From Terriglobia bacterium (GTDB taxonomy: Bacteria > Acidobacteriota > Polarisedimenticolia > Polarisedimenticolales > CAVOVZ01): 64,000 nt of DNA. The notes under the pieces were generated by a model. It had not been told where the DNA came from and made no database searches. It was given only the letters and a program-made list of their open reading frames with translations. Positions 1 through 62,386 of this stretch are shown here, piece by piece; positions within the stretch are counted from its first letter, which is position 1, and each line of letters opens with the position of its first letter. The translations under genes and the position numbers were made by a program. The DNA lies in assembly GCA_963699985.1 (NCBI GenBank), contig CAVOVZ010000028.1, positions 32,013-96,012 of the forward strand, in the 5' to 3' direction.

Positions 1-1423
1 GTTGTCGAGCGGCGAGCCGTTGGCACCCTCGGGGATCATGTGCGCCTCGGTGCAGAAACACAGCGCGATGCGCAGGCGAGCCCAGGCCACGTCGTGCTTT
101 CCCATCTCGTGCCAGCCGCGCAGCATCTCGAAGAAGTCCTGGGAGCACCCCCCCAGCTGGACGACGCGGTCGACCTCGTCCATCGCGAGGAGAACTCCCT
201 CGGGATGCGCGGCCAGAATCTGATCGTTGACGAGCGCTTGCAGGCTTGTTTCGCGGAGAGCTTCGTGGTCGCGATCTCGACTGCCGCTTCCGGGTCGAGC
301 CCTGCGGCTCGAGCATGGCGCCCGTGAGCTGGACGAGAAGCCTCTTCAGGTCGGACAGCGCGGTGAGGTCGAGTTCATCCTGGAAGTTGAGCTGGATCAC
401 GAGCGGGCCGCCAGGTGCAAGGCGCGCCTGCGACGCGAGGCGCGTCAGAGAGCGAGCTCTTCCCCATCTGGCGCGGGCCCAGGATGTGGACCATCCCCGG
501 GGATTCCGTCATCTCCCGCTCGGCCTCGCCATCGGTCTCGCGCGTCACGTACAGCGCCGATCCCAGCGGACCGTCCCCGTCGGGTGGACCAGCTCGACCG
601 GCCGGGGTGCCCGGGCGGTCGAGCGCGGCACCGGAATCGCGACGCGAGTCGCGGTGGCCATCTCGGCGAGGCGCGTTTCGAGCAGTTCGAGGTCCGTTCG
701 AAGCGCTTCGCATCCCTGGTAACTTCAGCTCGAGCGCATGACAGATGACACGTCGCGCCGCAGGCACGGGCTCGCGACCGGCGGCCGCGAGGACGAGGGC
801 CGCGGATGCCGCGCACGCCGGCGACCCGTGGTCCTCGAGGCTCGTCGGGGAAAGCCCGAGCTTCGCCGCCAACCCCGTCCGCGCGAGCTCCAGCTCAACA
901 GCGGCGTCAGCAGGCGAACGAGATCGTTTCGGAGGTCCGGTTCCAAACCCGGCTCGGGCAACGAAGGCGCGCGAGGACCGTCGGGGATCGTCGGAAAACG
1001 CCTCGGGTCCCTGAGCCCGTAGAGCACGCCCACGAGTTGCCGCAGCCCCTCGGCGTAGGTCGCGTCGTCGTTTTTTCGGAAGTCGACCTGCTGAACCGAG
1101 CCGAGGAAGGGCGGCAACGGCGTGTCCACGAGGAGCGCGAGCTGTACGAGCCTGTCCTGATTCCATCTCGGGTGGGCCGCGCGAAACGCGTCCAGCTCGT
1201 TCTGCACCCAGGGGGACGCGAAGGCCTCCGGGGTCGCGACGAGAACCACCCGGTCGGCGTGCGCGAGACCCTCTTGCAGTCCAGCCACCCAAGAGCATCC
1301 AGTCCCGAGATCCGCCTCGTCGAGCCAGACCGTGCCGGCGCCGAGATGGGTTTCGAGGTCCCGGTGGAGCGCCCGCACCCACTCGCCATACGAACTCGCG
1401 TAGCAGAGAAACGCTGCCCTCAT
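1..1423 (-). pseudogene. TIR domain / helical adaptor-like segment / AAA_35-like P-loop NTPase (STAND-type). The 3' end runs off the window. Frame changes near ~897 and ~455 (pseudogene or assembly indels).
   Basis: ORF 725..1423(-) starts MRAAFLCYASSYGEWVRALHRDL..VWLDEADLGTG..VVLVATPEAFASPWVQNELD, which is TIR-like. The protein continues in the 375..1751(-) frame (..AAVELELARTGLAAKLGLS.., then Walker A MVHILGPRQMGKSSL). Hand translation of the third minus frame over 1-455 gives LTRLASQARLAPGGPLVIQLNFQDE..GVLLAMDEVDRVV (Walker B-like)..FFEMLRGWHEMGK, typical of AAA_35-type NTPases. Confidence 0.75.
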
Positions 1424-1820
1424 CGATGCTCATCATACTGGAAGAAGCGATCGTCGGAAACGCTCCTCGGGAGCCTTTGAAGAAGGGGCTGCCGTCGACT
1501 TCGGGGGCGATACCCGCCGGCGCCCCGCAGCTGCTGCCGAGGTCCACAGGAACGTCTTGCAGGGGCGTTTCGTCGCTGCCATCAGCTCCGGTCGTCGTCC
1601 GGGAACTCCGCAACTCGTGGCGTTTTCGGAGATGAGCCCGGGCCGAGTCGACGCGCAGCAACCGGAGGTGCACTCCAGTCGCGGGGTCCCCGAGGTTCCC
1701 GGGATGCGGCATCGGTGAAGCGCGCCGACGAGACGCCGCAGCCCCTCGCATGGAGATCGGTCGGCCACCGGAGCAGCAACCGGCTGCCTGGGCCCAACGG
1801 GAATCCGCGAAACAAAGCTC

Positions 1821-3395
1821 TCAGTCGGGTCGAATCCGGCTTCGGATCTCCTTGATCAGGACGCCTTCGTTGCAATCCCCTTTGCCGGTCCCTCGTCGGT
1901 ACCCGTGATGGCACGCCACCAGCAGCCACTGGTCGTTGAAGACCGGCGAGCCCGAGTGGCCATGCGTGGTCGGGCTCCGGTAGCGGACGTACGGCCCCTC
2001 GATCCCCAGGAAGTGATTGTCGTACAGGGAAATCGTCAGCTCGCCGCCGGCGGGATGGCCGATGATGTACAGCCGCGGAGGTTCGGCCAGGCCGAGATGA
2101 TTGGGGAGACTCTCCGCGCATGGAAGAGCCTTTACCGGCTCGACGGCTGGCCTCAGCGCCACGATCGCGGTATCGAGCTCCCTCGGTGGATGAAGCCAGA
2201 ACACGATCGATGAGGAACTCGTTCGGCTTTCGAGTCCAGGTGGTGAAGTGGACTCGCGTCGCTCCCGATTCCGCGTTCCTCACGACGTGATGGTTGGTGA
2301 CGAAGAGAACGCGACGCGGATGATCCGGCCACAGATCCTGGGAATCGATGAGGAACCCGCTGCCTTCGGCGCCGCGCGTGCTCTCGACCCGCGCGATCGA
2401 GTGGACCCGGACCATCGCGGTCCTCCACCAGCGGATCGATCGGAACGACTCTCGCCCGAGCACGGCCTCGTAGTCCACCACGCCGTCGTCCGGCGCAGCC
2501 TCGGCCGATCGAGCGTCGAGTTGGACCGAGCTTCCCTCCTTGCGGAGCAGGGCGCCCCTCAGAACGGGCAGCAGCACCCGGCCCGGGTCCTGCGACTCGT
2601 CCATCCCCCAAAGCTCTTCCATCTGCCGCAGGGTCGACGCCAGCTCGAACGCGTCCGCGTGATCGCTCCGGATGTAGCGCTCGACCCAGCCCAGCGCACC
2701 CGTGACGTTCCCGAGTGCCACGCAGGCCTCCATCGCGGTGCCGAAGTCCCACATGTCGGCGGTCTGTTCCTGATCTTTCGCCTCCACCACCGCGAGGATC
2801 CGACCGGCGAGCACTCGGGGGTCGGCGTCGACGCCGGGCGGGACGCGATCCCGCCGCGCCCGATCGAGGAGGGCCACCACGTTGATCCCGTGCCAGACGT
2901 TTCGGTCCGGCATGCGCTGGAAGTCCTCCAGGTAAGAGGACACTGCGAGCCTCAGCGCCTCCGGGGCGTAGGTCGCACCCTGGTCGCGCGCGAGCTCACG
3001 TAGATCTGCTTGTACGCTCGCCCGATCAACCCGCGAACTTCCGGTCCCTCGCTCGGATCGGTCGCGACCCTTTCCGACAGCTCCCGGAGGACCAGGAGCC
3101 CTTCCGCGATCTTCCCCTGGTCGAGCAGTGCCTGGGCGAAGTGGCGGCGCACCACCGGCCCGTCATGGCCGCACCGGATGAACTGGAGCGCCGTCGACTC
3201 GAGGAGGTCGAACCGTCGCTTTCTACGAAGCAGCTTGAGGACCCTGGCGACCTCCGTTTCCGGGTACTTCTCGCCACCGCGCTGAAGACCACGGGCGAGC
3301 TTGCCGCACAGGGACTCGACCGTCTCCCGCTCGAAGGAGTCGAGCGCCGACTTCAGGTCCTTGGCGAAGGGGGAAAGCGACCGGTCGTCAGACAT
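1821..3395 (-). pseudogene. DUF4071 (TRAF-binding-like TPR) domain fused to a trypsin-like serine protease. Frame changes near ~3000 and ~2205.
   Basis: ORF 2952..3530(-) contains MSDDRSLSPFAKDL..AQALLDQGKIAEGL..GLIGRAYKQIY, with GGAGGG ahead of the ATG at 3395. The next frame (1582..2943) continues RELARDQGATYAPEALRLAVSSYLEDFQRMPDRNVWHGINVVAL (DUF4071 hallmark), then GSGFLID..VLFVTNHHVV (His). ORF 1821..2204 supplies ELDTAIVAL (Asp) and THGHSGSPVF (Ser). The catalytic triad is therefore present once the frames are joined. Confidence 0.8.
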
Positions 3396-5541: not shown

Positions 5542-5826
5542 ATGACCTACCGACCGCGGCCCATCGACACGACCGGGATCGAGCTCGGCGAGGACCTCGA
5601 CGCGTTGGTTGAAGCCCTCGCCGCGAACGTCCACGAACACTGGTCGGAGCAGCGAATGAGCGAGGGCTGGAGGTACGGGAAAGACCGGGACGACGCCGCG
5701 AAAGCCCATCCCGACCTGGTCCCGTACGATCAGCTGCCGGAATCGGAGAAGGCCTACGACCGCCTCACCGTGGTCCAGACCCTGAAGGCCGTCGTGGCGA
5801 TGGGATACCGCATCGAGAAGGCCTGA
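5542..5826 (+). CDS. Stand-alone RyR (ryanodine-receptor repeat) domain protein, 94 aa
   Basis: MTYRPRPIDTTGIELGEDLDALVEALAANVHEHWSEQRMSEGWRYGKDRDDAAKAHPDLVPYDQLPESEKAYDRLTV matches the RyR-domain pattern (HE-W..R...GW-YG......K-HP-LVPY--LPE-EK-YDR). GGGGGAGA precedes the ATG. Confidence 0.8.
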   Translation: MTYRPRPIDTTGIELGEDLDALVEALAANVHEHWSEQRMSEGWRYGKDRDDAAKAHPDLVPYDQLPESEKAYDRLTVVQTLKAVVAMGYRIEKA

Positions 5827-5911
5827 CGGCGGCGAGCCGCGGCTTCAGCGCGCGCAGGATCGAGCCGATCGTCCGGCGCCTGCGAGACCGATGCGACGGT
5901 GGGAGGATCGC

Positions 5912-7700
5912 ATGGGCGAAAAGCGAGCCGATCACGGATCTGGCAACGGGCGAAACAGGAAGACGCGACGGGGCCCGAGATCGACCGAGAAGCTGAGCAG
6001 GCTCCGCGCGCTGGTCTGCCGGCTGGGGCAGATGTGCACGCGACTGGCCCAGTTCGGTCAGTCGGCGTCACCCGAGATGTCTGCGACGGTCGCCGCGTGC
6101 GCGAAGAGCGCCCTCGCCGTCGCGAACGAGCTGGATCCACCCTCCGGAGCGGTCGCTCCAGCACCGAGGAGGAGGGCCGCGCGCGATCGCGACGAAGGCA
6201 TCACGGCCGCGGCGCATCTCGAGGCCGTCTCGCGACGGATCCTGGAATCCGCGGTCCTCCGCAAGGATCCCGACCTGCATTTCGACTTGGGTCTCGCGTT
6301 CAAGGAGATCGAGGAGTACGAAAAGGCCGAGACGCACCTGCGCATCGCCACCACGCGGCGGCCGTCGAACGAGCGGACTTTCCAGCAGCTCGCGATCTGC
6401 CTCGGACGGCTGGGACGGCTGGAAGACGCGCTGGGCATTCTCTCCGATCTCGATCGGGACCGGCCCGGATCCTCCGAGACGCTGGGGCTGCTCGGCCGCG
6501 TCCACAAGGACCTGTGGCTGCGCGAGAGGAAGCTCCACAGACTAAATCGGCACCACCTGGAGCGGGCGGTCCGCTGCTACGAGGCGGGCTTCCGGAAGAA
6601 CCCGACCGACTTCTATCCGGGCGTCAACGCCGTGACGCTCCGAAGCTTCCTGTCCGGCACGGGAGCGCAGGGGCGATCGGCAGGACTCGCAGCCAAGGTC
6701 CTGGCCGCCTGCGAAATCGACACGACGTTCGGCACCGACGATTTCTGGGCTTGGGCTGCGGCGGGCGAGGTTCACATCGCGTGCGACCGGTTCGACGAGG
6801 CGCTGCTGGCTTACGAGCGTGCGCTCGAGTGCCGCCACACGCCGTTCATGCGAACGTCGGCGCTGCGGCAGCTCGTGCTGATCCGCGACGAGCGAGAGTC
6901 TCGACGCGCAGATCGACCCGATCATCCGGCGCCTCGAGGCGCCCTCGCGGCCGGACGAGATCTCGCCGCGGTTCATTCGCTGGCTGGCCAGCGAGTACTC
7001 GGCGCACCGGCGAAAGGCTCCGAGCGTGGCGGTCAAGGGATACGACCTGGGCCAGAGGGTCCTGCCGGCCCTGGGATTGTCGGCGGACCTGCTGTTCGTG
7101 CGCGCGGACGAGCGGACCCTCCGGGTGGGGCTGGTGGACATCCGGGGCAAGGGGCCAGGCGCCGCGATGCTCGCGCACCTCGCGGAGGGGATTCTCGAAT
7201 CGGCACGCCCGGGCGAGACGCCGAAGGCGACGATGGAGCGGCTGAACAACGCCCTCGAGAGACACTCCTGTCCCAGCGCCGGCGCGCTGCTCGACGTCAC
7301 CCTGGGAACGAGGAGCGTACGCTGCGTGCGCGCGGGGCTGCCGGAGTTGCTGATCTTCGACTCCGCGACGGGAAACCACCGGCACCACGCGGAGGGCGGC
7401 CCACCGCTGGGCTTCCTGCGAGACCCGGAATTCCCGCAGGCCAGCTTCCGCTTGGCACCGTCCGAGACGCTCGTGATCGTTTCGGACGGAATCACGGAAG
7501 CGGCCCCTCCCGGCGATGAAGGGCAGGCGCAGTTCGGCTACGACGGGATCCTGCGCCAGCTCCGCGGAAAGGAAAAGGCAACGCGGTCCGCGCAAAGCCT
7601 CGCCGACGACATCGTCCAGGCCGCTCGGGAGTTCTGCCACGATCGGCGGGACCGGGACGACATGACGGCGTTCGTGTTGAAGGCTCGTCCGCCCGCGTGA
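5912..7700 (+). pseudogene. TPR/DUF4071 domain fused to a PP2C-type (SpoIIE) phosphatase. One frame change near ~6898.
   Basis: ORF 5891..7519 carries TPR-like LGLAFKEIEEYEKAETHL and the DUF4071 hallmark GLLGRVHKDLW..FYPGVNAVTL up to ..LRQLVLIRDERES. Hand translation in the 7026 frame then continues LDAQIDPIIRRLEAP..VAVKGYDLG..VDIRGKGPGAAML..GGPPLGF..LVIVSDGITE..DRDDMTAFVLK, which are SpoIIE/PP2C motifs. GGGAGGA precedes the ATG at 5912; the exact start is uncertain. Confidence 0.75.
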
Positions 7701-8504: not shown

Positions 8505-8565
8505 TGACCTCCTTTTCTGCCGGCGGGGCCGATTGCCCCCGGCATGAGGCCTTGCCGAGTCCCCC
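8505..8565 (-). promoter_or_regulatory. Conserved 5' leader, copy 2
   Basis: Same ~60-nt block as 5266..5325, directly upstream of the paralogous gene, including AAAAGGAGGTC before the ATG. Confidence 0.5.
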
Positions 8566-8689
8566 TTTTGCCGCGGGGAGCGGATGCCGGGTCGCAGGAA
8601 CGGGCCGGTTGCGGACAGCCGAAACTCGCGCAACACACCGCAGTTCGAATGGCCCGTGCGCTGGCGAGTTTGGGTTCGTGTCCCCGACT

Positions 8690-9170
8690 TGCCTCTGCTT
8701 CCTGCTTCCTCCCGCTTCCTGCTTCCTCCCGCGGCTCTCCGCCCCCTTGGCTTCCTTCGCTCGCCCCTTCTCCCCCCTTCGCTTCTCTGCTCTCGCCTCC
8801 TCTTCTCGTCTCTTCTCTTCACTTCTCTCCGATCCGCTGCTCCCCCCTCGCCCGCTCTCCCGTCCCCCCGGCTCTTCTCCGGCCCTCGCCTCTACGTCCC
8901 ATCCGCTCTCCGCTCCCCTCTCCCCCTTGCTCTCCGCCCCCCCCTGCCCGTTTTCGCTCGCTCCTCTTCACCCATCCGCTCCGCTACTCTCGCCGCCTCT
9001 TCTCTTCGCCTGCCTTCTCTGCTCTCCGATCCGCTGATCACCGCTCGCCCGCTCTCCCCGGCGCCTCTCCGCCACAGCGCGGCAGCCCTCGCCGCGCCGC
9101 CCCTCTTCTCCCACGCGCGCGCTGCGACACCTCCTTCCCCGCCGCGCCGGGCCCGGGCATAATCGAGCTC
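8690..9170. repeat. ~480-bp polypyrimidine (C/T) tract on the plus strand, almost devoid of A, in a divergent intergenic region
   Basis: Runs such as cttcctgcttcctcccgcttcctgcttcctccc...ctcttctcgtctcttctcttcacttctctcc. All three plus frames are open, giving Pro/Ser/Leu-rich pseudo-ORFs (8544.., 8552.., 8584..). An internal ~200-bp-spaced repeat ctctccgatccgctg..ctcgcccgctctccc occurs at ~8825 and ~9023. Confidence 0.85.
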
Positions 9171-9200
9171 GCCCGATCATCGGAACCGCCGAGGGACCAG

Positions 9201-12200
9201 GTGCCGACCAGCGAAGACGGCAAGCCGCCCACGCTCTTCGTGAGCTACAACCACCAGGACGCGGCCGAGGTCGAGGCGGTCGTCGCCGAGCTGCGCGCGG
9301 AGGGCATCGAGGTCCTCTTCGACCGATCGTCGTTCGAGCTGGGCCTTCCCTGGCGCGACCAGGCGGAGCGGGCGCTCCGATCGTGCAGCGCCGTTCTGGT
9401 GTTCCTCGGTCGCAGCGGGATCGGGCCGGAGCAGAAGCAAGAACGGGACATGGCCCTGTCCCGTGCGAACAGGGAACTGGGCTTCCGGGTGATCCCAGTT
9501 TTGCTCCAGGGCGCCGATCCGCCGGGCGACTTCCTGAGCGAGCGGGCCGGGGTCGATCTCGCGAAAGCCCCGGACCGCGGGGCAGCGATCCGCGCGATCG
9601 CGGCGGCGGTCCGGCGCGAGCCTCCCTCGGCCGAGCAGACCCGGCTGGCGAAGGAGGCTCGGGAGGCGATTTGCCCCTACCGCGGATTGAAGCACTTCCG
9701 CGAGGAGGACGCCTCGCTCTTCTTCGGCCGCGAAACCTACACCGAAGACCTCGTCCGGAAGGTGCGCGACCACTCGATCGTCGTCGTCGAGGGGGCCTCG
9801 GGACGCGGCAAGTCCTCGATCGTGCGCGCCGGCCTCGTCCCGTTCCTCCGCAACGACCCGTCCGGCACGAGCTGGGACATCGCCATGATGACTCCCAGGG
9901 ATCGCCCGTTCTACTACCTCGCCGAGGCGCTCCTGCCGATCCGCGAGGACATCCGCGACGGCGTCGCCTTCGACGCGAAGGCCGAGGACCTGAGCAATCT
10001 GCTCCGGGAGCGGAAGGAGAAGCTGCGCGACGTGGCCGACCACGCGCTGGCGCGTCGCGGGCCGTCCCGCCGCCGCCTCCTGGTCGTCGTCGATCAGTGG
10101 GAGGAGCTGTACACCCTCTGCGAGCGCGACGCGGAGCGCGACGACTTCATCGAGATGCTCCTCGACGCCACCGCGAACGGGCCGGTCCAGGTCGTTCTCA
10201 CCGTCCGCGCGGACTTCGCCGGCCGCCTCTCCGACCATCGCGCCCTCAACGACCGGACCAACGACGCCAGGCTCAGCCTGGGCCCGATGAACCGCGACGA
10301 GCTGGGGCGGGTGATCGCCGAGCCGGCCCGCGTCGCCGGCCTGACGCTCGAGCAGGGTCTCGCGGAGTGGATCCTCGGCGAGGTCGGAAGCGACGCGGAC
10401 AGCCTGCCGCTCCTCGGCTTCACCCTCGCGGAGCTGTGGCGCCTCCGGAAGGACAGCACGCTCACGCACGCCGCGTACGAGAAGATGGAAGGCGTCAAGG
10501 GGTCCATCACCCACCACGCGGACGCGGTGCTCCAATCCCTCGGAAAGGACGACCGCGAGCGCCTCCGACGCCTTTTCCTGAACCACCTCGTCAGGCCCGG
10601 CGACAGGACGGAGGACACCAGCCGCCGAGCCCCCCTCGCGCAGCTCGACCCGCCGATGCTGTCCCTCGCCCGCAAGCTCGCCGACGAGCGCCTCGTCGTG
10701 ATCTCGCGCGAGAAGGCCGCGGGCAGCGAAACCGTGCAGGTCGTCCACGAGACTTTGATTCGCGGCTGGAAATCCCTGAAGGAGTGGCTGGACGCGGACC
10801 GCGAGTTCGCCTCGTGGCGCGAGCGGCTGCGGCGGGGGATGGCGGACTGGGAGGACCGAGGCCGGCGCGACGTCGCGCTGCTGCGAGACGACGACCTCGC
10901 CGATGCGCGCCGCTGGCTGGCGCGCCGGCGCGAGGACCTGAGCGAAGCCGAGAGAGACTTCGTCGAAGCGAGCGCTCGGCGGGAGCGGCGGGCGCGGACG
11001 CGCCGGTGGGCCGCGGCGGCCGCGATCGGGGTGACGCTCGCGGCGGCCGGGGGATTCGCCGTGGTGACCGAGATGAGGCGGGTGGAGGACCAGGCGAAAA
11101 GGTTGTGCATTGAGGTGACGACGACTTCGAAACCCTGGGCAGTCGTCGCGCTACTTCGTGACGCAAAGCGCGATTTGCCCGTCGTCGAATACCACGGTCT
11201 TGCCCGGTGCGTGCTGGAGAGGAATGAGCCGTGGGACGGATTCGAGTCGCTCCCCGTCTTCGGACCGAAGCCTGTCTATGTTCGTCCCGGCGACGTCTTC
11301 GACGCGGTCGAGCTGATGCTGCCGAGCGCGAAGCCTGCGGACGTCGATGACGTGCAGCTCATCGCGTCCCTGCTGTGGGCGCTCGACTACTCCCGGCCTC
11401 GACGGCTCGCTTGACGAGCCGTATCTGAGGCTGAGATCGAGCGCCGAAGACACGCTCCATGCGGCATTCGGCCCCCCTGGGGCGGGGTTGATCAAGAAAG
11501 ACGCCTGGGTTCGCGTCGGCGGCCGCTCGTTCCGGATGGGGAGCGAGGCCAGAGATCAGGTGGCCGATGGTGACGAGTGGCCGGCGCACGATGTGACCCT
11601 GTCTTGGTTCGAGATCCTCCGGCATGAGGTCTCGGAGGCCGAGTGGCGCGCGTTTCGCGGGTCGGTCCCCGAGCAGCCGAACATCGAATCTCGGCATGAC
11701 GGTGAGCTTCCGGTGATTGGTGTGACCTGGTACCAGGCGTACGCGTTCGCGGCGTGGCTGACGCCCGGCGGCCGCCTCCCGACGGAGGCGGAGTGGGAGC
11801 ACGCGGCGCGCGGCGGACACGACGGCCGGCAGTATCCGTGTGAGGGGGAAACGGTTTGTGGGGGTTCGACCTGTCTCGCGAACGTCCGCGAGGCCGAAAT
11901 CCAGGGTCGGACTCCCGTTTGCTACGGAAGGTTCAAACCGAACGACTTCGGGCTCTGCGACATGGCCGGCAACGTGTGGGAGTGGACGGCAGATTGGTAC
12001 GCGCCATACGCGGACGAAAAACAGACCGACCCGCGTGGCCCCCCCCGGAATAATGATGAGGCAACAACCCACGGCCGGGCGCGCGTGATCCGGGGCGGGA
12101 GCTTCGACTACGAGGGCTGGGTCGCTCGCTGCGCGGACCGCCTCTACGGGTTCGCGTGGGACAGGGACGGGTCCCTCGGCTTCCGCGTCGTGCGCCCCGC

Positions 12201-12216
12201 CGCCCCGAGCGATTGA
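9201..12216 (+). pseudogene. TIR - STAND (nSTAND-like) NTPase - TM helix - FGE-sulfatase (SUMF1/lectin-fold) domain protein. One frame change near ~11400.
   Basis: A GTG at 9201 follows GAGGGA. TIR: PTLFVSYNHQDAAEVEAVVAELRAEGIEVLFD..VLVFLGRSGIGPEQKQE. STAND: ICPYRGLKHFREEDASLFFGRE..VVVEGASGRGKSSIVRAGLVPFL..LLVVVDQWEELY. TM: WAAAAAIGVTLAAAGGFAVV. Frame 0 stops at 11414, and the 11347 frame continues ..WVRVGGRSFRMGS..VTWYQAYAFAAWL..RLPTEAEWEHAARGG..GNVWEWTADWY..VIRGGSF..GFRVVRPAAPSD. It is collinear with the intact paralog 13049..16333. Confidence 0.8.
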
Positions 12217-13048: not shown

Positions 13049-16000
13049 CTACTTCCAATCGCTCGGGGCGGCGGGGCGCACGACACGGAAGCCGACGAGC
13101 GCGCTCGAGTCCCTCGGGTCGGCGAGGAAGCGGTACGCGCAGCGTGCGTACCAGCCATCGCTGAAGAAGCTCCCGCCCCTGATCACACGCCCCGCGCCGC
13201 GGGTCGGGCCCAGAGGGTCCTCCCGCCGCTTCGCTGAATACGGCTCGCGCCAATCGGCGACCCACTCCGTCGCATTACCCGCCATGTCACACAGACCGTA
13301 ACCGTTCAAGACGAATCTGCCGTCACAAACGGGCGATCGATCCCCGATTCTCGCTTCCTGAGGGATATCCCACTTCCACGCCCGCTTCGTGACGACGCGC
13401 CCCGAGGATGGATCCCCGATTCTCGCTTCCTTCACGTTCGCCCGGCACGATCCGCCGGCGCAAACGTCCTCGGGCCCCCACGGATACCGCTGCCCCTCCA
13501 GTCCCCCGCGCGCCGCATACTCCCACTCGGCTTCCGTGGGAAGACGACCTCCTGGCACGAGCCACGCCGCAAACGCATAGGCCCGGTACCACGTCGTACC
13601 GACGACCGGCAGGTCGTCGCTCTTCTCGTCGGGGACATCCGCAGGTTCGGGGGCCTCTCCGGTGAACGCGCTCCACTCCGCCTCCGTGACCTCGTGTCGG
13701 AGGATCTCGAAACCAGAAACGGTCACATCGATCGCCGGCCGCTCGTCGATATCGCCTTCCCGATCGTCGGACTCGGTTCCCATTCGAAACCGCCCCCCAG
13801 GAATCGGCACCCAATCCGAGCTCGAAAGGAGACCCGAGGGAGGATCCGGGGGTTCCCGCGACGCGCGCAGAGACAGTTCGACGCGCCTGCGTAGCTCGCG
13901 GCATCGGCCTGCGACCGCCGGGTCGCGCCGCTCGCGCTTGCTCACTCCCGCGACGTAGTCCACGATCCACGCCATCGCACCGAAAGTCTCGTCGCGCTTC
14001 TTCCGGCCCGCCAGAGCCTTCGCGAGCGGCAGGAGGTCTTCGACGAGATCCAGCTCCTTTCCCGGGTCGAAGCCCTTCGGGAGCATTTCAAGCCCGTAGG
14101 GATAATCCGCCCGCGCCACCGCATTTTGGAACGCCCCAACGAGAGCCCAGGAGTGGTCGCGGGAAACCTGCATGAGGAGCGAGTGGATCTCACCGCTGGG
14201 AGCTTTGCTCAGCCTACCCGCCAGGTTGACTCCGTCGAAGTACACCTTCGCCCCGAGCCCCACGACCGCCGCCAGCACCAGCGCCCCGGCGCCCGCGATC
14301 GCCGCGCGGCGGGTCCAGCGTTTCCAGCACGCCCGGAACCAATCCCGCTGCGCCGGGGCGCTGAGGAGCGCGTCCTTCGCCCGGCGGATCCGCACTAGCT
14401 GGCGCACCGACATGCGGGTGGCCTGGGTCCGGGCCTCCGGCGCTTTCGATGCGAAAAGCGCGGTGTTGAGATCGACGATCCGCCGCAGGGCGAGGGTCTT
14501 GTTGCGCGCGCTCTCCTTCTCGACCACGCGCGCCACGGCCTCGGCGACGAGATCGTGGGTCAGCTCGTAGAGACCGTCCTGGACGACCACGATCCGGGCC
14601 CGGTCGTCGGCGAGACGCTCCAGGACCGTCGCGCCCTGGGAGCCGATCGCCGCGGCCAGCTCCGTCCCCGGGATCCCCGGGCCGCGTCGGTTCTCGGGGC
14701 CGACGAGACGGTGGAGCGCGAGGAGCGTGCGCTCACGCACCTTCGCGGGCTGATCGACCTCGACCTCGCGCACGACGCGCTCGAGCGTGTCGGTCACGTG
14801 GCGATCGAGCGCGTCGGCGATCAGCGATCGCGGTTGCTCGGGAACCGACACGCTGCGGGTGCCGTCCGGAAGTCGCTCGGCCTTCTTCTCCAGGAGATAC
14901 CGGAGCACCACCTGGAGCTGCGGGACCAGCGGCCGCTCGCGGTCGGCGAGGCGCTCCTCGGCGAACGCCGCGGCGAGACGGCTCGCGCCCGTGTCGATGA
15001 ACTTCAGTGGATAGACGGCGGTACCGTCCTCCTTCCTTCGCAGGCGGAGCGGCTTCTCGATCGCGTCCCGGAACGCGGCCTCGACCTCCGCCCTCTCCCT
15101 CGGCTCGTCCGCCAGGCCCGGCGTCGGCGAGGCGAAGACCGGCAGCCGCCACGAGTGAAAGCGGTCCTGCATACCGTCGTGGGGCAGCCCCTCGATGCCG
15201 GGCACGCCCGACTCGTGCGCCGCCGACAGCAGGTCGCGGAGCCAGCCGTCCACCTTGCCGGTGTCCTCCTCGCGGAAACCCAGCAGCCAGCGGCAGGGGG
15301 GCTCCGCGGGCCACGACTGGAGCTGGAGCGTCGCGGCGACGAGCGCGCCTACCTCTCCGCGCTCGCGGACGCGGGCCCGATCGAGCAGGAGGCTCTCGAA
15401 CTGGTCGAGGATCAGGATCGGCGGCTTGCCGCCGTGCAGCTTGCGCGCGACGACGAGCGCCGCGACGAAGCCGCGCGCATCGAACGCGCTCGACGGAGCC
15501 GGCGGCGGCTGGATGAGCTGCCGCAGGAGGCGGTGCGCCAGATCCGGCTCGCCCGGCTTGCGGTCGTAGGCCGCCGGGTGGTTCGCGTCCCACAGCGCCG
15601 GCAGCAGGCCCGCGCACAGCACGGAGCTTTTCCCCGCGCCCGACGGCGCCTTGAGCCCGAGGATCGGGAACGGAAGGGTCAGGAGCCGGAGCAGCTCCGT
15701 CACATCGCCGTCGCGGCCGGCGAAGAGATCGCGGTGCTCGTAGTGCCGCAGGAGCGGGTACGGCTCGGCGGGCAGCCTGGGCGGCTCGGGCGTGTGACGC
15801 GTCACGCCCTCCGAAAGGACGGCGGCGGACTTTCCCGGCTGCGGCTTCCCCTCCCGGTAGTTGTTGAGGAGGGTTCGGAGCGTCTCGCGAAAGATCGGAA
15901 GCTCCGGACCGTCCTCCCACCGGAACGGCGTTGCGATGCGGTTCAAGGTGTTCCGGAGGTCTTTCATGTAGGCCAGCTCGCCCGGATCCAGATCCGCGAG

Positions 16001-16333
16001 TCCCGGCCAGAGGTCCTCTGCCATCAGGACCAGCACGTCGAGCGGCCTGGGCCTTCGCGCCCCGGCGCGCTTGATCTCGAGGCTCGTGATCGACTCGCGG
16101 CCGTCGCCGTCTTCCGCGGCCGTCGGAACCCAGCCGCGCCGCCACGCGACGATCGCCAGCATCAGGTCGCACGAGTCGATCTTCTCGTAGCACGGGCGGA
16201 CGATGCCCGGCTTTCCGTCCTGCTGGAAGTCCTCCATGTTCACGGGAGTCCAGCCGATGCCGTGCACCACGTCTCGCGCGACGATCCGGTGCTGCTTCAG
16301 GTCCTTGGACGTGGAGGAGATGAAGACGCGCAT
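13049..16333 (-). CDS. DUF4062 (TIR-like) - STAND NTPase - TM helix - FGE-sulfatase domain protein (intact)
   Basis: MRVFISSTSKDLKQHRIVARDVV..CDLMLAIVAWRRGWVP (DUF4062). LFAGRDGDVTELL..LGLKAPSGAGKSSVLCAGLLPAL..ILILDQFESLL (Walker A/B). TM AAIAGAGALVLAAVVGLGAKVYF. C-terminus WVPIPGGRFRMGTE..TTWYRAYAFAAWL..RLPTEAEWEYAARGG..GNATEWVADW..VIRGGSF..GFRVVRPAAPSDWK. Confidence 0.85.
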   Translation of the reverse strand: MRVFISSTSKDLKQHRIVARDVVHGIGWTPVNMEDFQQDGKPGIVRPCYEKIDSCDLMLAIVAWRRGWVPTAAEDGDGRESITSLEIKRAGARRPRPLDVLVLMAEDLWPGLADLDPGELAYMKDLRNTLNRIATPFRWEDGPELPIFRETLRTLLNNYREGKPQPGKSAAVLSEGVTRHTPEPPRLPAEPYPLLRHYEHRDLFAGRDGDVTELLRLLTLPFPILGLKAPSGAGKSSVLCAGLLPALWDANHPAAYDRKPGEPDLAHRLLRQLIQPPPAPSSAFDARGFVAALVVARKLHGGKPPILILDQFESLLLDRARVRERGEVGALVAATLQLQSWPAEPPCRWLLGFREEDTGKVDGWLRDLLSAAHESGVPGIEGLPHDGMQDRFHSWRLPVFASPTPGLADEPRERAEVEAAFRDAIEKPLRLRRKEDGTAVYPLKFIDTGASRLAAAFAEERLADRERPLVPQLQVVLRYLLEKKAERLPDGTRSVSVPEQPRSLIADALDRHVTDTLERVVREVEVDQPAKVRERTLLALHRLVGPENRRGPGIPGTELAAAIGSQGATVLERLADDRARIVVVQDGLYELTHDLVAEAVARVVEKESARNKTLALRRIVDLNTALFASKAPEARTQATRMSVRQLVRIRRAKDALLSAPAQRDWFRACWKRWTRRAAIAGAGALVLAAVVGLGAKVYFDGVNLAGRLSKAPSGEIHSLLMQVSRDHSWALVGAFQNAVARADYPYGLEMLPKGFDPGKELDLVEDLLPLAKALAGRKKRDETFGAMAWIVDYVAGVSKRERRDPAVAGRCRELRRRVELSLRASREPPDPPSGLLSSSDWVPIPGGRFRMGTESDDREGDIDERPAIDVTVSGFEILRHEVTEAEWSAFTGEAPEPADVPDEKSDDLPVVGTTWYRAYAFAAWLVPGGRLPTEAEWEYAARGGLEGQRYPWGPEDVCAGGSCRANVKEARIGDPSSGRVVTKRAWKWDIPQEARIGDRSPVCDGRFVLNGYGLCDMAGNATEWVADWREPYSAKRREDPLGPTRGAGRVIRGGSFFSDGWYARCAYRFLADPRDSSALVGFRVVRPAAPSDWK

Positions 16334-16441: not shown

Positions 16442-18650
16442 CTATTCCACGGACGTGTCGTCGGACCGGGCGCCCGGGGCCGGCGTCTGGACGATCTCCC
16501 AGTCGAGCGCATCGAGGAGCGACCCGAGCTGCCTCGCCGCCGATCGGTCGTACTCCCGCGCGTCGTCGCGAACCTCCGACCAGGGGACCAGAAGCGGGTG
16601 GGTCTTCCCGTCGGCGTCCTTCTTCTCGCCGTACGTCCAGCCCTGCTCGAGACGCTCGACGACCCAGCGGCCGTGCTCCATCTGCGCCAGCTCTTCGAGC
16701 TGCTCCGCCGTTGCTTCGAACCGCTCGCCGCGCTTGGCTCCCACCGGAAGCCGCAGCTCGTAGCCCAGCCGCCGGAGCTTGCGCGCCAGGTCGCGGGCCT
16801 GGAGGCTGCTCGATTTGCGGTAGTCGGGGTGAAGCTGCTCCCAGGGCGCGTCGGAATCGTCCGGGGTACGGCCTTGCTCGTGACGGGTGCGCCGGTACTC
16901 CTCGTGGATCGCGCGGCCGAGCCGCTCCTCGAGCGAATCGGAGAGCCAATCGGAAGGCAGCTCCCTCCCGGCGAAGGCGCGAGGGATCTCGACGTCCGAG
17001 AGCGGCAGGATCATCGGTCGGCGCGCGGCGCTGTGCTTCTCGTCCTCGTCGTGACTGCGGCCCGGGTGCCTGGGCCGAAGCAAGGACGCCACGCGCGCCG
17101 CAGGGTCCACGCACGCGACCACGCCGCCCAGCACGGCGCACGCGGTCGCCTCGATCGGGGTTCGGATCGAGCGTCCCAGGACCAGCACCGCGGGAGCGCG
17201 ACCGCGACGGTCGGCGGCGACGAGGTCCTTCCACGCGCGGACGAGCGCGGGCATGCCGCGGTAGCGGTCCGGAAACGTGGGATCTCCCAACGCCCGCGCG
17301 TGCTCGTCGGGGTCGTACGAGCGGAAGCCGAACCCGGAGCCCGCGGCGCGGGACGCGTCGCGCAGGAGCGCGCGCAGGGCATCGTCCGATCCGACGTGGA
17401 GCACCGTGCCTCCGAAGTCCCGCAGCACGGCCCGGAGCCGCTCGCTCTCCCGCTCGATCCACGCCGCCGCGCGCCCTCCGTCCAGAACGAGCAGGAACGG
17501 AGGCTCGATCGAGCGCTCGGCGGCCGCCGCCGAGCCGACCTCGAGTCGTGATGCGAGCGCGAGAAACTCCCTCGCCAGGACGAAACGCGCATCCGCGGCG
17601 AACACCCGCTCGGTCAGGACCCGGAAGCTCTCGTGGGTCGTGCTCACCTTGCGCACGCCCGGGCCGGAGTGAGCCACGGCACGGACGAGGGCGTGGAGGT
17701 ATCTCGTTCGATCGCCCCCGAGGAGAAGGAACTTCGCCAGGTCGAAGGAGGACCAGGGCACGTTGATGCTCTTGGCTGCGTCGCGACGCGTCTCTCGGAT
17801 CGCGAGATCGATCTGCAGCCGGTACTCGTCGATCGCCTGCTGCGCCGCGCCCTTTCGGACCGCGATCTCGATCACGTTCCCCAACGGGTAGGCGAAGTAG
17901 TAACGCGGGTCTTGCCCGGCCAGATCGAGCGCCTTTCGGTACCACGCCTCCGCCTGCTCGATGTCCCCTGCTCGCTTCCACGTGCCCGCGAGCGTCGAGA
18001 GGGTATCCGGCGTCGCCTGTGGAGACTCCGCCGCCCGCTCCAGCAGCGACTGTCCCCTCTCGAACTCGCTGGTGCCCGGCGCGTTGCGCTGTGTCAGCGC
18101 GAGGCCGAGGAGCTCCGAGCGCCCGGAAGTCGCGAAGGTAGTCGCTGCGATCGAGGAGCCGGATCACCTCGCTCCAGTCGTCCTTCTGCTCCTTCGCCAG
18201 GCGGGCCTGGTGGAGGGCGAGGACGAGGGACGCCTCGAACCCACTCGTGGCGGGGGGAGGCGCGATCGGTCGACGGCCTCGGGCCAGCTCCCGATACGCT
18301 TCGTCCTTGACGATCCAGAAGAACATCCGGGGCTGCGATCCTACCGTTCGCAATCGATCCCGGAGCCGTTCTCGCGTCGCGTGCACGATCTCGGTGTGAC
18401 CCGTGGAGAAGGCCACCTCCGCGCCGCGTCCTGGACGAACGTAGCGAAGCTGCTCCCCCTTGGGCGGTTCCTTGAAGCTCTCGGCCGGAAGGAGGCCGCG
18501 GAGTCGATCCTCGTCGTTACGGGACAGGACGTACACCGCCGGAAGCCGCGACGACTCGTCGTTCCGTAAGCGCGCCAGATCGCTCTCGGGGAGCTCGCAC
18601 GCCTCCCAATCGGTCGAGTCGGTGGTGAAACGGAATGCCGGGATCGCCAT
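16442..18650 (-). pseudogene. Multidomain protein: unknown N-terminal domain, TPR-like repeats, central alpha/beta region (unassigned) and C-terminal RyR domain. One frame change near ~18125.
   Basis: Start MAIPAFRFTTDSTDWEACE is preceded by GAGGAT. The 16368..18764 frame reads to ..IRLLDRSDYLRDFR. Hand translation of the 16442..17884 frame upstream of its start gives ELLGLALTQRNAPGTSEFERGQSLLE..AGDIEQAEAWYRKALDLAGQDPRYYFAYPLGNVIEIAV. The C-terminus LEELAQMEHGRWVVERLEQGWTYGEKKDADGKTHPLLVPWSEVRDDAREYDR is a RyR domain. The stop lies 108 nt upstream of the start of 13049..16333 on the same strand. Confidence 0.7.
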
Positions 18651-21985: not shown

Positions 21986-22014
21986 AGAACGTCCGTGAGG
22001 CTGCTAACGAGACG

Positions 22015-37940: not shown

Positions 37941-38037
37941 GAAGAGGCACTCCTTCCGGCGGTGACCCGACGCGCGAGATCTTGCCCCTCATGGCCCGAC
38001 CTGCGCGGATGGACGCCGGCGTCGGCCGCAGAGGAAG

Positions 38038-46257: not shown

Positions 46258-46354
46258 GAAGAGGCACTCCTTCCGGCTGTGACCCGACGCGCGAGATCTT
46301 GCCCCTCATGGCCCGAGCTGCGCGGGTGGACGCCGGAGTCGGCCGCAGAGGAAG

Positions 46355-46370: not shown

Positions 46371-46859
46371 GTCAAAGACCCGCCGCGTTGATCCCGCCGG
46401 CGTGCCTCTCGAGCGGACGCATCCCTCCGCCATCTCACACGGGGACAGCAACTTGGTCGTGCCGAGGGGGACTGCGCGCGGCCTCATTTCGATGCCTGTC
46501 GCGCTCCCTCCATCGCGGGGCAGTTTGCCCCCCCGGGTCGGTTTGCCCCTCAACGGTCTCGATGCGACGACGGCACCCGGCCGAGCCGCGCTGGCCCCCT
46601 CACCGGATGATCGAGCGTCGACCCATCGGAGACGGCTCCTTCTCGCGACGCGAACGCCACCGGGACCGTCGCTCTCGCGGATGCCTGCCGCCGCCATGTC
46701 ACGAGGCGAAGCGCCCCTTCGGGGCAGGCTGCCCCGAGAAGAGGTTGACATCCGGGTCACGCAAGGTGGAGACTGGCGTCACGGCAGACAGCGGCGCGAG
46801 GGGGCCCGAGCATCGGCGAATCACGGCCAGCTTCGACAGGCGCGGAGACGGGAGATCGC

Positions 46860-48827
46860 GTGGGTGCAGAGGGATCGGCGAGCAGTCTTGTTCTCGAAGA
46901 AGCGAGTGCGCTCGCCCTCGTTGGACGATTCGAGGAATGTCTGGCTCTCCTCGAGGGCGTCTCCCGGCGGGAGGGGACCACTGCCGCGATCCTCGGCTCC
47001 ATTCAAGTCCTGAGAGCACGAGTGCTGATCGCGCGAGGGGAGCCCGGTGATTCCGCGGATGCCCGGCAGACCCTCGAACGGCTTCGTCAGCTGCGAGGGA
47101 CTGACGGCTGGCGACTCGACCTGGCTCTGGCCCGACTCGACCACCGCGAGGGACGCCTCGCCGATGCCGCGGCGCTCCTGAAGGAGTCGCTGGAACGCTT
47201 CCGGGCGCAGGGCGAGCTTCACGGGGACGACGTCGCTCTCCTGGCGCCGATGCTCCTGCGCGAGGTGGACCTCCTCGAACGCTCGCGCCCCGGTGCCACG
47301 GCCGCGACTCCCCCCGGCGGCGGCGTACCCGGGCAGAGCGTCGTTCCCGATCCGGGCTCACTGCTTCGCCTGATCGAGCTGGGGAAGCGTCTCGCGGACG
47401 AGGCGGATCCGGAGCAGCTCCTCAGAATCGTCCTGCACGAGGCGATCGATCTGAGCCATGCCGATCGGGGGTTCGTCGTGCTGGTGAGGGACGACACGCT
47501 CGACTTCGCCCTGGCCGAGAACTTGGACTGGTCCGAGGTGGAGAAGCCGACGTTCGAGGTCAGCCGGACGCTGATCCGCAAGGCGATCCAGGAGACGAGG
47601 CCGTTTTTCCTGCGCATGGCCGACGAGGGGGACGGTCACGAGGCGGCGCGGAGCCTCGCCGAGATCGGCGCGCGCTCGGTCGCCTGCGTTCCGATGGTGC
47701 ATGCGGGCGCGACGCTGGGCGTTCTCTACCTGGACGGCCGGAATCCGGCCCATTCCTTCAACGGCGGAAAGGAGCGACTGATCGAGCTATTCGCTTCGCA
47801 GGCCGCCGCCGCGCTCGACAACGCGAGGGCGCATCGAGCCAAGAGCCAGGCGCTGGAGGCGGCGGAGGAGACGATCCGGCGCCGGCGCAGGGACGAGGAG
47901 CGGAGGGAGCGGTACTTCGAGCTGATCGGTGCGTCGGACGAGATGCAGGATCTCTACCGGAAGATCGACCTCGTCGTTCCGACCGACATGCCGGTGCTGA
48001 TCCTCGGCGAGACGGGAACCGGCAAGGAGCTGGTCGCGCGGCGCATCCACATGGGCGGCCCGCGCCGCGAGCGGGAGTTCGTCGCCACCAACTGCGCGAG
48101 CATGGCGGAAACGCTCCTCGAATCCGAGCTGTTCGGCCACGAGCGTGGCGCCTTCACCGGCGCCGATCGCGCGCGCCCGGGGCTCTTCGAGCTGGCCCAC
48201 CGTGGGACGCTCTTCCTCGACGAGGTGGGGGACATGAGCCCGCGCATGCAGGCCGACCTGCTTCGCGCGCTCCAGTCCGGCGAGGTGCGGCGCATCGGGG
48301 GGCGGGAGACCAAGCACGTGGACGTTCGGGTGATCGCGGCCACTCACCGCGACCTCGCGGAGCTGATCCGCCGCGGGGAGTTCCGTCAGGACCTGTACTT
48401 CCGGCTCAACGTGCTGAGCCTCCACCTACCGCCTCTCCGGAACCACCCGGACGACATTCCTCTACTCGCAGGGGAGCTTCTCGGCCGGCTGGCCGCGGAC
48501 GGACGGCCGGCTCCCGTGGTCTCCGAGCGGGCCATGCGGCGCCTGGTGGCGTATTCCTGGCCGGGGAACGTGCGAGAGCTCGAGAACGTGGTGCGTCGCC
48601 TCCTGGTCCAGCGGGTGCCAACGATCGAGGAGGAGCATCTCCCGGCGGAGATCCTGCGACCGCATGCGCAGTTCGACCGCGCGGGCTCGCTCCGCCGGCT
48701 CGAGGACGACGCCATCCGCGGTGCAGTCGAGGCCGCGGGAGGCAGGCGCGCCGATGCGGCGCGCCTCCTCGGGATCAACCGGAAGACCCTCTACTTGAAG
48801 ATGAAGCGGCTCGGCCTCGACCGCTGA
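46860..48827 (+). CDS. Sigma-54-dependent transcriptional activator (TPR-like N-terminus, GAF, AAA+ sigma-54 interaction domain, Fis-type HTH)
   Basis: A GTG start follows GGGAGA. GAF-like: LSHADRGFVVLVRDDTLDF..ACVPMVHAGATLGVLYLD. AAA+: VLILGETGTGKELVAR..ESELFGHERGAFTGA (GAFTGA motif)..GTLFLDEVGDM..RVIAATHRDL..FRQDLYFRLNV. HTH: AARLLGINRKTLYLKMKRLGL. Confidence 0.9.
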   Translation: MGAEGSASSLVLEEASALALVGRFEECLALLEGVSRREGTTAAILGSIQVLRARVLIARGEPGDSADARQTLERLRQLRGTDGWRLDLALARLDHREGRLADAAALLKESLERFRAQGELHGDDVALLAPMLLREVDLLERSRPGATAATPPGGGVPGQSVVPDPGSLLRLIELGKRLADEADPEQLLRIVLHEAIDLSHADRGFVVLVRDDTLDFALAENLDWSEVEKPTFEVSRTLIRKAIQETRPFFLRMADEGDGHEAARSLAEIGARSVACVPMVHAGATLGVLYLDGRNPAHSFNGGKERLIELFASQAAAALDNARAHRAKSQALEAAEETIRRRRRDEERRERYFELIGASDEMQDLYRKIDLVVPTDMPVLILGETGTGKELVARRIHMGGPRREREFVATNCASMAETLLESELFGHERGAFTGADRARPGLFELAHRGTLFLDEVGDMSPRMQADLLRALQSGEVRRIGGRETKHVDVRVIAATHRDLAELIRRGEFRQDLYFRLNVLSLHLPPLRNHPDDIPLLAGELLGRLAADGRPAPVVSERAMRRLVAYSWPGNVRELENVVRRLLVQRVPTIEEEHLPAEILRPHAQFDRAGSLRRLEDDAIRGAVEAAGGRRADAARLLGINRKTLYLKMKRLGLDR

Positions 48828-62220: not shown

Positions 62221-62386
62221 CTCGGAGGTCCTCCAGAAGGAATTCCCCTGCGGGGAACAGGGAAGCTCGAGACTCGTCGGAATCCAGCGGTCCCGGCCTC
62301 CCCGGCACCGCTGCACCCCCCCGCGGAAAGCGGGAGATAGATACCAGCGCGGTCGGACGATGTCAAGGGTCGAAACCAGAGCTCAA

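Follow-up and report, generated by a model that had tools for sequence, protein, structure and literature searches.

Host-encoded RyR proteins beside TIR and TPR-S genes: a candidate accessory of a proposed Thoeris-like conflict island in a Terriglobia bacterium

The subject of this study is a gene for a small stand-alone RyR-domain protein (positions 5542..5826, + strand) and the TPR-S-phosphatase gene that follows it (5891..7700, +) in a 64,000-nucleotide (nt) stretch of DNA, referred to below as the window, from a Terriglobia bacterium (GenBank assembly GCA_963699985.1, contig CAVOVZ010000028.1, positions 32,013 to 96,012 of the forward strand). An earlier note on this DNA, made from the letters alone, had described a recurring combination of RyR, a TPR/DUF4071 scaffold and a swappable phosphatase or protease head next to TIR-NTPases. 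Here, the genes of the island were characterized by profile searches, comparison with related contigs, structure modelling and a survey of RyR neighbourhoods. RyR genes of the same family were found beside TIR and TPR-S genes in several phyla, and for the host-encoded RyR protein as a conserved accessory of TIR/TPR-S/STAND systems no earlier description was found. The window has a G+C content of ~68% and many spurious open reading frames (ORFs); coding frames were picked by third-position GC.

The RyR protein is intact and comprises 94 amino acids (aa). Its gene starts at ATG 5542 with a GGGGGAG Shine-Dalgarno sequence ahead of it, and the product matched the Pfam family RyR (PF02026) with an E-value of 5e-34 and a score of 116.8 bits, against a gathering cut-off of 27.4. 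The sequence also matched PDB entry 3NRT (E 1e-28) and animal RyR repeats. On L001, a related metagenomic contig (ENA ERZ25039459), the orthologue (P0012) shows 97% aa identity. Members of the stand-alone family are 93-98 aa long and ~60% identical across phyla (Acidobacteriota, Planctomycetota, Nitrospirota, Chloroflexota, Bacillota, and others). Neither PADLOC 2023 nor NCBIfam yielded a family match for RyR, for the TPR-S proteins, or for the small genes that flank the pair. Full-length RyR proteins of the 94-aa type, 53-56% identical to that of the window, are also encoded on two human-gut phage contigs (MT836850.1, 1156-1428, and MT837259.1, 934-1206), and the subfamily occurs both in phages and in host operons. 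A different architecture, unrelated to TPR-S, was seen in four large proteins (P0134-P0137), in which an N-terminal NAD-binding TrkA_N domain is combined with three or four RyR repeats.

Between the RyR gene and the TPR-S-phosphatase gene downstream of it lie 64-85 nt, depending on whether the start is placed at 5891 or at the likelier ATG 5912. No terminator was found between the two genes, and they are probably co-transcribed. The first ~335 codons gave matches to TPR-S (PF20308, E 1e-23) and to PF13281, formerly DUF4071 (E 1e-8). They are followed by a complete SpoIIE/PP2C domain (positions 2-191 of 192, E 1.5e-31), which ends at 7700 and retains the metal-binding Asp motifs DIRGKG, SDGITE, and DDMT in its translation. 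Pfam thus confirmed all three families that had been named for this pair (RyR, DUF4071, and SpoIIE), as well as their order and coordinates. The phosphatase gene is not one ORF, as had been supposed: searches on both frames and on the read-through placed TPR-S in the frame of 5891..~6898 and SpoIIE in that of ~6900..7700. The read-through aligned with an intact 600-aa protein of L001 (P0001) over 99% of its length at 81% identity.

Another TPR-S gene, at 1821..3395 (-), carries a trypsin-like protease as head. Both domains had been recognized correctly, although two frame changes, at ~2950 and ~2210, are needed to join the three frame segments of the gene. Pfam on the read-through gave Trypsin_2 (1-143 of 144, E 1e-18), TPR-S (E 8e-12), and PF13281 (E 6e-5), and all three catalytic residues are in place: H (NHHV), D (LDTAIV), and S (GHSGSP). 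In human ASK1/MAP3K5 (5ULM, 8QGY), the TPR-S profile matched the central TPR region with E ~1e-26, and this relationship accounts for the PF13281 matches. Burroughs and Aravind are said to have described in 2020 a TPR scaffold with a predicted ability to recognize NAD+-derived signals, which later became part of the ASK signalosome. The TPR-S alignment revealed a conserved polar set (K116, Y140, N156, and W196). The nearest homologues of the TPR-S regions in the window (P0003, P0004, and P0006, E 2e-14 to 1e-11) are DNPH1-like plus TPR-S proteins, whose N-terminal domain gave a weak but consistent match to the DNPH1/Rcl N-hydrolase family (E 0.03-0.3). Such a DNPH1-like (CMP-hydrolase) head was not found in the TPR-S proteins of the window, whose heads according to Pfam are SpoIIE/PP2C and Trypsin_2. 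As a side observation, the N-terminal region of human ASK1 (8QGY, 56-101) aligned with positions 63-106 of profile A6, in the DNPH1-like domain ahead of TPR-S in bacterial ThsI-like proteins, around a motif FYxLGVR; the match is weak and non-significant and hints that ASK1 may have kept the whole two-domain architecture of DNPH1-like and TPR-S parts.

The third TPR-S gene, at 16442..18650 (-), is a fusion in two frame segments with a break at ~18125. It encodes an N-terminal domain of ~175 aa without a Pfam match, a TPR(-S) region, a Rossmann-like, putatively SLOG-type domain (~16955..17497), and tandem RyR repeats (~16493..16939). The C-terminal RyR domain of this TPR-containing protein, already described in the earlier note, was confirmed (Pfam E 4e-17, 62.6 bits, cut-off 27.4); the frame break and the SLOG-like middle domain had been overlooked. 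With the intact part of the fusion as query, an exhaustive HMMER search yielded, among its best 150 matches, ~40 proteins of ~830 aa whose alignment runs end to end, and a word-index search gave nothing but the truncated 477-aa protein of the window itself. All 33 end-to-end homologues scanned contain RyR, 27 of the 33 an N-terminal RelA_SpoT synthetase, and 20 of the 33 a SLOG domain (LSDAT_prok, best E 4e-10) between TPR and RyR. A PDB profile search with the family gave RelQ/RelP-type synthetases for its N-terminus and no SLOG entry. The window copy itself gave no LSDAT_prok match, and its Gly loops, judged by eye against the family consensus (A4), are degenerate. Its N-terminal domain also differs from the RelA_SpoT domain of the homologues.

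An AlphaFold2 model of the fusion, built on the homologue alignment (pLDDT 86, pTM 0.86), comprises a TPR solenoid, a beta/alpha domain of Rossmann-like fold (residues 210-390), and a tandem-repeat module. The N-terminal 175 aa, modelled without an alignment, reached a pLDDT of 48, and that model was discarded. With the whole model as query, Foldseek found RyR Repeat12 two-repeat domains as top matches, including human RyR3 R12 with ADP or AMP-PCP, and TPR folds as well, and did not pick out the middle domain separately. The tandem repeats are modelled as an R12-like pseudo-dimer (TM-score 0.55-0.66 versus RyR3 R12 with ADP/AMP-PCP). In an alignment with the phage protein RyDEP, which is introduced below, repeat 2 keeps the residues H/W/H/D and repeat 1 is degenerate. 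The middle domain of this copy may be SLOG-like. SLOG domains are the receptors of ThsA for cyclic ADP-ribose (cADPR) isomers. Because a putative SLOG sensor and RyR share one chain, RyR would have a role here other than primary sensing, and the architecture suggests that it adds a function beyond that.

The stop codon of the fusion gene lies 108 nt from ATG 16333, the confirmed start of an intact STAND NTPase gene, DUF4062-nSTAND1-FGS, on the same strand (13049..16333, -; Pfam), as had been stated. The other STAND gene (8544..12216, +; Pfam) consists of a TIR-nSTAND1 ORF (8544..11414, real start probably ~9200) and an FGS domain in another frame (11347..12216). Its TIR_2 domain (E 7e-19) is fused to nSTAND1-FGS and is not a stand-alone ThsB. 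Variable regions (VRs) of a diversity-generating retroelement (DGR) were located at the 3' ends of both genes: in the FGS domain of the TIR-nSTAND1-FGS gene (12067..12210, +), ~81% identical to the AAC-rich template repeat (TR) of L001, and in the DUF4062-nSTAND1-FGS gene (13061..13211, -), which also matched the TR of L001. Both VRs differ from that TR mainly at TR adenines. In L001, a cassette with RVT_1, bAvd, and the TR (18074-18222) lies between the two target genes. The window lacks this cassette of reverse transcriptase (RT), TR, bAvd, and HTH_17 between its two STAND targets, where ~2.7 kb is missing compared to L001 16916-19584. Upstream in the window, an ORF at 375..1751 (-) showed a weak match to AAA_35-type NTPases; its L001 orthologue is a 620-aa TIR_2-AAA_35 protein.

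Five frame breaks were found in four genes of the island, and all three TPR-S genes are spread over more than one ORF in the sequence as given. These breaks, including the one that splits TIR-nSTAND1 from FGS, had been missed, and the genes had been taken as intact. In the phosphatase gene, a three-way alignment of the window, L001, and L002 (a second contig of the same assembly as L001) revealed one extra base at ~6899 (6893..6900, +; GAG-T-CTC versus AAG-CTC in L001). The TIR-nSTAND1 and FGS frames are separated by a deficit of 2 bases at ~11398 relative to the single 998-aa orthologue of L001. Joining the frames gives contiguous Pfam domains, namely Trypsin_2, TPR-S across the junctions, and the full SpoIIE; the ancestral TPR-S genes were single ORFs, whether the breaks are real or not. 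L001, which is 88% identical to the window, holds the whole island with every gene intact, in the order TIR-nSTAND1-FGS, TIR-AAA_35, an unassigned gene, Trypsin/TPR-S, the first of two small secreted proteins, RyR (94 aa), TPR-S-SpoIIE, the other secreted protein, TIR-nSTAND1-FGS (998 aa), RT, bAvd, HTH_17, and DUF4062-nSTAND1-FGS. The adjacency of RyR and its phosphatase partner is thus conserved in a related genome. Programmed frameshifting was considered and rejected, as there is no slippery or conserved context, the indels are of differing kinds, and an intact orthologue exists.

L002 and the window share 97.6% identity over a stretch of 17.3 kb, in which there are 169 gap positions, and L002 is plainly rich in errors. 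This contig has the breaks at ~6899 (where the inserted base is A, and T in the window) and at ~2950, and none at ~2210, a site spanned by a single 374-aa Trypsin_2 ORF. Parts of the locus are present on contigs from three public metagenome runs (X1-X3), none of which extends across 6899, 18125, or the site in nrdJ. This gene, which encodes a class II ribonucleotide reductase (within 59449..61898, -), contains two frame changes within ~60 nt (~60330-60400): ORF 60348..61898 holds the barrel domain, and the C-terminal part is read in the same frame as ORF 59449..62316. It is either a pseudogene or the site of clustered assembly indels. Three giant ORFs, of 3493, 1948, and 1905 aa, are unbroken elsewhere in the window. 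The ratio of nonsynonymous to synonymous substitution rates (dN/dS) between the window and L001 was 0.23 for RyR; in the phosphatase gene, it was 0.28 over the TPR-S part and 0.37 over the PP2C part. As these values are still low (0.23-0.37), the breaks would be recent if they are real.

The neighbourhood of RyR was explored in 80 loci with stand-alone RyR genes from reference genomes, in which flanking ORFs were scanned by Pfam and by local hidden Markov models (HMMs). Within 6 kb of RyR, the local HMMs, which reproduced the Pfam counts, found a TIR gene in 34 of the 80 loci, a TPR-S gene in 19, either in 39, and both in 14 (raw counts). Among the downstream neighbours on the same strand with a length of 200 aa or more (n = 49, Pfam), TIR_2 occurred 17 times and TPR-S 6 times, and DUF4062, SLATT, and alpha/beta-hydrolases were also present. 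The corresponding upstream neighbours (n = 50) included TPR-S (8), RyR (7), and TIR_2 (6), along with patatin, RelA_SpoT, cyclase, and MoxR. The TIR and TPR-S neighbours lie mostly directly adjacent to RyR on the same strand, with gaps mostly of 8-230 nt. Two layouts recurred: a TPR-S-effector gene followed by RyR and a TIR protein gene (L022, L035, L055, and L057), and RyR followed by a hydrolase-TPR-S-TIR gene (four Dehalococcoidia). The TPR-S heads adjoining RyR were nucleotide cyclase, patatin, alpha/beta-hydrolase with TIR, and AAA+-RelA_SpoT. Further annotated loci include a cyclase, RyR, and CHAT protease series (one contig) and an RyR gene convergent with a TIR gene. The other neighbours (SLATT, patatin, CHAT, and DUF4062-nSTAND1) are conflict-system effectors.

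Single-ORF fusions of the Rosetta-stone type, RyR-TPR-S-Guanylate_cyc, were found at two loci (L050:2587-4869, 761 aa; L082:5890-8103, 738 aa). In a Nitrospira metagenome-assembled genome (GCA_031316045.1, L165, 3971-12282), a gene for a Sigma54-AAA+...RyR protein (677 aa) is followed, with a 4-nt overlap, by a stand-alone RyR gene (93 aa) and two DUF4062-nSTAND1-TPR genes. This locus is an independent instance that mirrors the second module of the window, with RyR directly upstream of a DUF4062-STAND gene. The combination of RyR, TPR-S/DUF4071, and swappable heads beside TIR/STAND NTPases, which the earlier note had seen twice in the island, therefore recurs beyond the window, in the 80 loci, the fusions, and the Nitrospira locus. 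The adjacency of RyR to TIR and TPR-S genes is more than chance, and the linkage extends across phyla. The exact pair of RyR and TPR-S-PP2C was encountered in no lineage but that of the window (L001, L002). For the reciprocal view, which used local HMMs only, ThsI-like TPR-S genes were collected from metagenomes with a narrowed alignment that biases the set toward ThsI-like proteins; of the 42 loci with a length of 5 kb or more, 16 had a TIR-like gene nearby and one had RyR. No paper linking host-encoded RyR genes to TIR or TPR-S systems was found in the searchable literature.

A functional precedent comes from a mycobacteriophage. RyDEP, a PF02026 protein, is a glycosidase acting on TIR-made 2'/3'cADPR, and other phage homologues bind TIR signals as sponges (Lopez Rivera et al., bioRxiv 2026, PMC13232231). 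It has thus become outdated to call the function of bacterial RyR domains unknown. In RyDEP, H75 (water activation) and D117 (general acid) form the catalytic dyad, W78 stacks on the adenine, and H100 contacts the phosphates (PMC13232231). The RyDEP sequence was taken from GenBank MN234187 and aligned to the window protein, in which H31, W34, H56, and D73 correspond to H75, W78, H100, and D117. In 200 stand-alone RyR sequences (120 database homologues and 80 genomic copies), no substitution of H31, W34, or D73 occurs, and 194 of the sequences retain H56. The two proteins share the family, the single repeat, the four ligand or catalytic residues, and a link to TIR signalling. They differ in that the window protein lacks the ~45-aa N-terminal extension of RyDEP and is host-encoded; RyR genes of its kind are operonic with, or fused to, TIR/TPR-S/STAND genes, whereas RyDEP belongs to a phage NARP1 operon. 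The role of RyDEP is immune evasion, and that of the window protein would be self-regulation. Homology of bacterial RyR to animal Repeat12 and Repeat34 and to the Bacteroides thetaiotaomicron structures (3NRT, 4N05, 6UAG) is clear (per-repeat E 1e-15 to 1e-8). Unlike animal RyR, the bacterial proteins are not part of an ion channel, and the catalytic Asp, invariant in the bacterial stand-alone family, varies in animal repeats (N, N, Y, and D in those of RyR1).

The TPR-S genes find their closest counterpart in Thoeris. The type VIII system consists of a TIR protein and ThsI, a CMP hydrolase-TPR protein, uses canonical cADPR, and defends as a two-gene system; the TPR of ThsI is the presumed cADPR receptor, and the type VII effector ThsH (SLATT) is also activated by cADPR (bioRxiv 10.64898/2025.12.03.692087). 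The same preprint credits Burroughs and Aravind (J Bacteriol 2020) with predicting the ThsI-type TPR in bacterial TIR signalling. A TIR protein and TPR(-S) effectors are likewise present in the window, and SLATT proteins occur among RyR neighbours. In contrast to type VIII Thoeris, the heads are PP2C and trypsin and not CMP hydrolase, TIR is attached to nSTAND1-FGS and not a stand-alone ThsB, and RyR is extra. The STAND genes, for their part, resemble the DGR-diversified nSTAND1-FGS (CLec) conflict systems described before (Kaur et al. eLife 2021, PMC8195603; Dore et al. PNAS 2024, PMC10907252), with two convergent STAND genes, C-terminal FGS domains with VRs, N-terminal TIR or DUF4062, and a trypsin-like protease nearby. 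L001 has RT, bAvd, and TR between the targets as in those systems, and the window has lost or lacks the cassette. The two articles mention neither RyR nor, under that name, TPR-S effectors. The layer that had been proposed as not characterized is therefore known in several of its parts: TPR was already predicted in TIR signalling, type VIII Thoeris uses a TPR effector, and DGR-diversified nSTAND1-FGS genes are published.

Based on these observations, we interpret the region, with modest confidence, as part of a TIR-based, Thoeris-like conflict island in which RyR is an accessory signal buffer or off-switch. The ligand, the catalysis, and the direction of regulation in the following scheme are what we infer from domain content, conserved linkage, fusions, and residue conservation. 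The STAND NTPases (TIR-nSTAND1-FGS and DUF4062-nSTAND1-FGS) would detect an invader via their DGR-variable, lectin-fold FGS tips, whereupon the clustered TIR-type domains would turn NAD+ into a messenger of the cADPR type. By analogy with ThsI, the TPR-S proteins would bind this messenger and switch on the fused PP2C or trypsin heads; compared with the passive scaffold that had been proposed, a signal receptor within the effector is the likelier role of TPR-S. The 94-aa RyR protein may bind the messenger in its H31/W34/H56/D73 pocket and either hydrolyse it with the H/D dyad, as RyDEP does, or sequester it. Such an activity would set the activation threshold and reset the system, much as ring nucleases do in type III CRISPR. 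The second module would provide an effector-type protein with SLOG and tandem RyR in cis, directly upstream of the DUF4062-STAND gene. Ring nucleases (Crn1-3, Csx1-Crn2 fusions, and viral AcrIII-1) are small proteins that degrade a signal and whose genes lie next to those of signal-activated effectors or are fused to them, and viruses use the same fold as anti-defence. The parallel would be one of function, as ring nucleases have an unrelated fold and another ligand, cyclic oligoadenylate.

Several points weigh against this reading. About half of the stand-alone RyR loci have neither TIR nor TPR-S inside 6 kb, and the neighbourhood counts carry no formal genomic background beside them. RyDEP homologues with high sequence conservation are sponges and not enzymes (PMC13232231), so the conserved dyad is no proof of catalysis. 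The equation of the ThsI TPR with PF20308 rests on the preprint's citation and on the DNPH1-like plus TPR-S architecture, in which the DNPH1 match is weak (E 0.03-0.3), and should be taken as putative. The TIR domain on a STAND NTPase could be a plain NADase effector and not a signal generator, and a PP2C phosphatase is unusual as a terminal effector. Finally, the partner genes of RyR are frameshifted in the window, so the module may be non-functional here. This last point leads to a different account of the locus, namely that the island is a decayed remnant of pseudogenes that has lost its DGR cassette and in which the adjacency of RyR and PP2C is a relic. We take it seriously while doubting it. 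Besides the number of breaks and the deletion relative to L001, the breaks common to L002 at ~6899 and ~2950 argue for it, and selective decay of the island is what the unbroken giant ORFs in the rest of the window would point to. Because the housekeeping gene nrdJ is also frameshifted, however, the breaks may be assembly errors, and the nrdJ pattern, with two changes so close together, is more typical of consensus errors in long-read metagenome assembly. The error-ridden state of L002, its other base at the 6899 insertion, and its lack of the 2210 break fit the same cause. Decay is also at odds with the dN/dS of the broken phosphatase gene (still 0.28-0.37) and with the intact RyR and DUF4062-nSTAND1-FGS genes. 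The window copy is either decaying or imperfectly assembled, with the intact form on L001, and decay would concern this copy only and leave the conserved association untouched.

A different role for RyR itself is that of a primary receptor or co-receptor, which would bind the TIR-made nucleotide, dock on the TPR-S scaffold, and activate the head as an obligatory positive partner. The in-frame RyR-TPR-S-cyclase fusions, the tight operonic linkage, the nature of TPR repeats as classical protein-protein modules, and the many RyDEP homologues that bind without cleaving are all consistent with it. We nevertheless consider it unlikely: TPR-S effectors mostly lack RyR, the fusion family already has a SLOG sensor, and a strictly invariant H/D dyad exceeds the needs of binding alone. 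Because RyR occurs in just one of the 42 TPR-S loci and type VIII Thoeris defends as a two-gene system without it, RyR is an accessory and not a core part, in contrast to its place at the centre of the layer proposed earlier. An occasional accessory that specializes in TIR/TPR-S systems fits a regulator. It has also to be asked whether RyR is a RyDEP-like anti-defence gene of a mobile element that resides in defence islands and serves the element against host TIR systems. Phage RyR proteins are anti-Thoeris factors, the full-length 94-aa type occurs on phage contigs (MT836850, MT837259), and defence and anti-defence genes co-localize in variable islands. Yet the window gene is chromosomal and operonic, no phage genes lie around it or around the L001 copy, same-strand gaps of 8-230 nt to TIR/TPR-S genes recur in many phyla, RyR is fused in frame to TPR-S effectors, AAA+, and SLOG proteins, and an identity of ~60% between phyla points to lasting conservation, either vertical or host-adapted. 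In view of the operonic linkage and the fusions, this highly improbable origin was rejected.

Some further genes of the window were recorded. Two paralogous genes, at 4528-5262 (-) and 7848-8501 (-), flank the RyR-PP2C pair (38% identity, E 2e-26). Their products have a signal peptide and two copies of an ~85-aa repeat with the motif W-S/N-D/E-S-S-L-G-C/F-P ... P-G-Y/H-R-V/L-I/F-L-R ... Y-E-V-H-T-D. They matched nothing in Pfam, NCBIfam, or PADLOC, and both are kept in L001 (215 and 218 aa). Between the trypsin gene and the first of them, a 285-aa ORF at 3543-4400 (-) showed a good coding signal and no family match in the same three collections. Beyond the island lie the giant ORFs: one of 3493 aa at 21412-31893 (+), with strong third-position GC bias and no Pfam match at E 1e-5, and two encoding paralogous proteins of ~1900 aa with FG-GAP repeats and a MopE-type metal-binding motif, at 32142-37988 (-; 1948 aa) and 40588-46305 (-; 1905 aa). 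A GAF-sigma54 activator is encoded at 46749..48827. Taken by themselves, the FG-GAP/MopE proteins, sigma-54 activators, and the G+C content would recall a myxobacterium; the record names a Terriglobia bacterium.

TIR nucleotide signalling is common to bacterial, plant, and animal immunity, and the host off-switch of Thoeris-type systems is largely unknown. Host RyR is a concrete candidate for it, as it carries the full pocket of a proven cADPR-isomer glycosidase and is genetically tied to TIR/TPR-S genes. The list of TPR-S heads is broadened to PP2C, trypsin, patatin, cyclase, and RelA_SpoT, and STAND/DGR antigen-sensor islands are connected with Thoeris-like signalling. A bolder proposal, which we regard as speculative and rather doubtful, is that host single-repeat RyR proteins are dedicated hydrolases or buffers of the cADPR family in TIR immunity, the equivalent of CRISPR ring nucleases, and the source of both phage RyDEP and the nucleotide-binding repeats of animal RyR. 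TPR-S and SLATT, the two effector classes that respond to canonical cADPR, are both among the RyR neighbours. If the proposal is true, this linkage would mean that the cADPR-RyR link of animal calcium signalling was inherited from bacterial immunity, which would offer an evolutionary rationale for nucleotide binding by ryanodine-receptor repeats.

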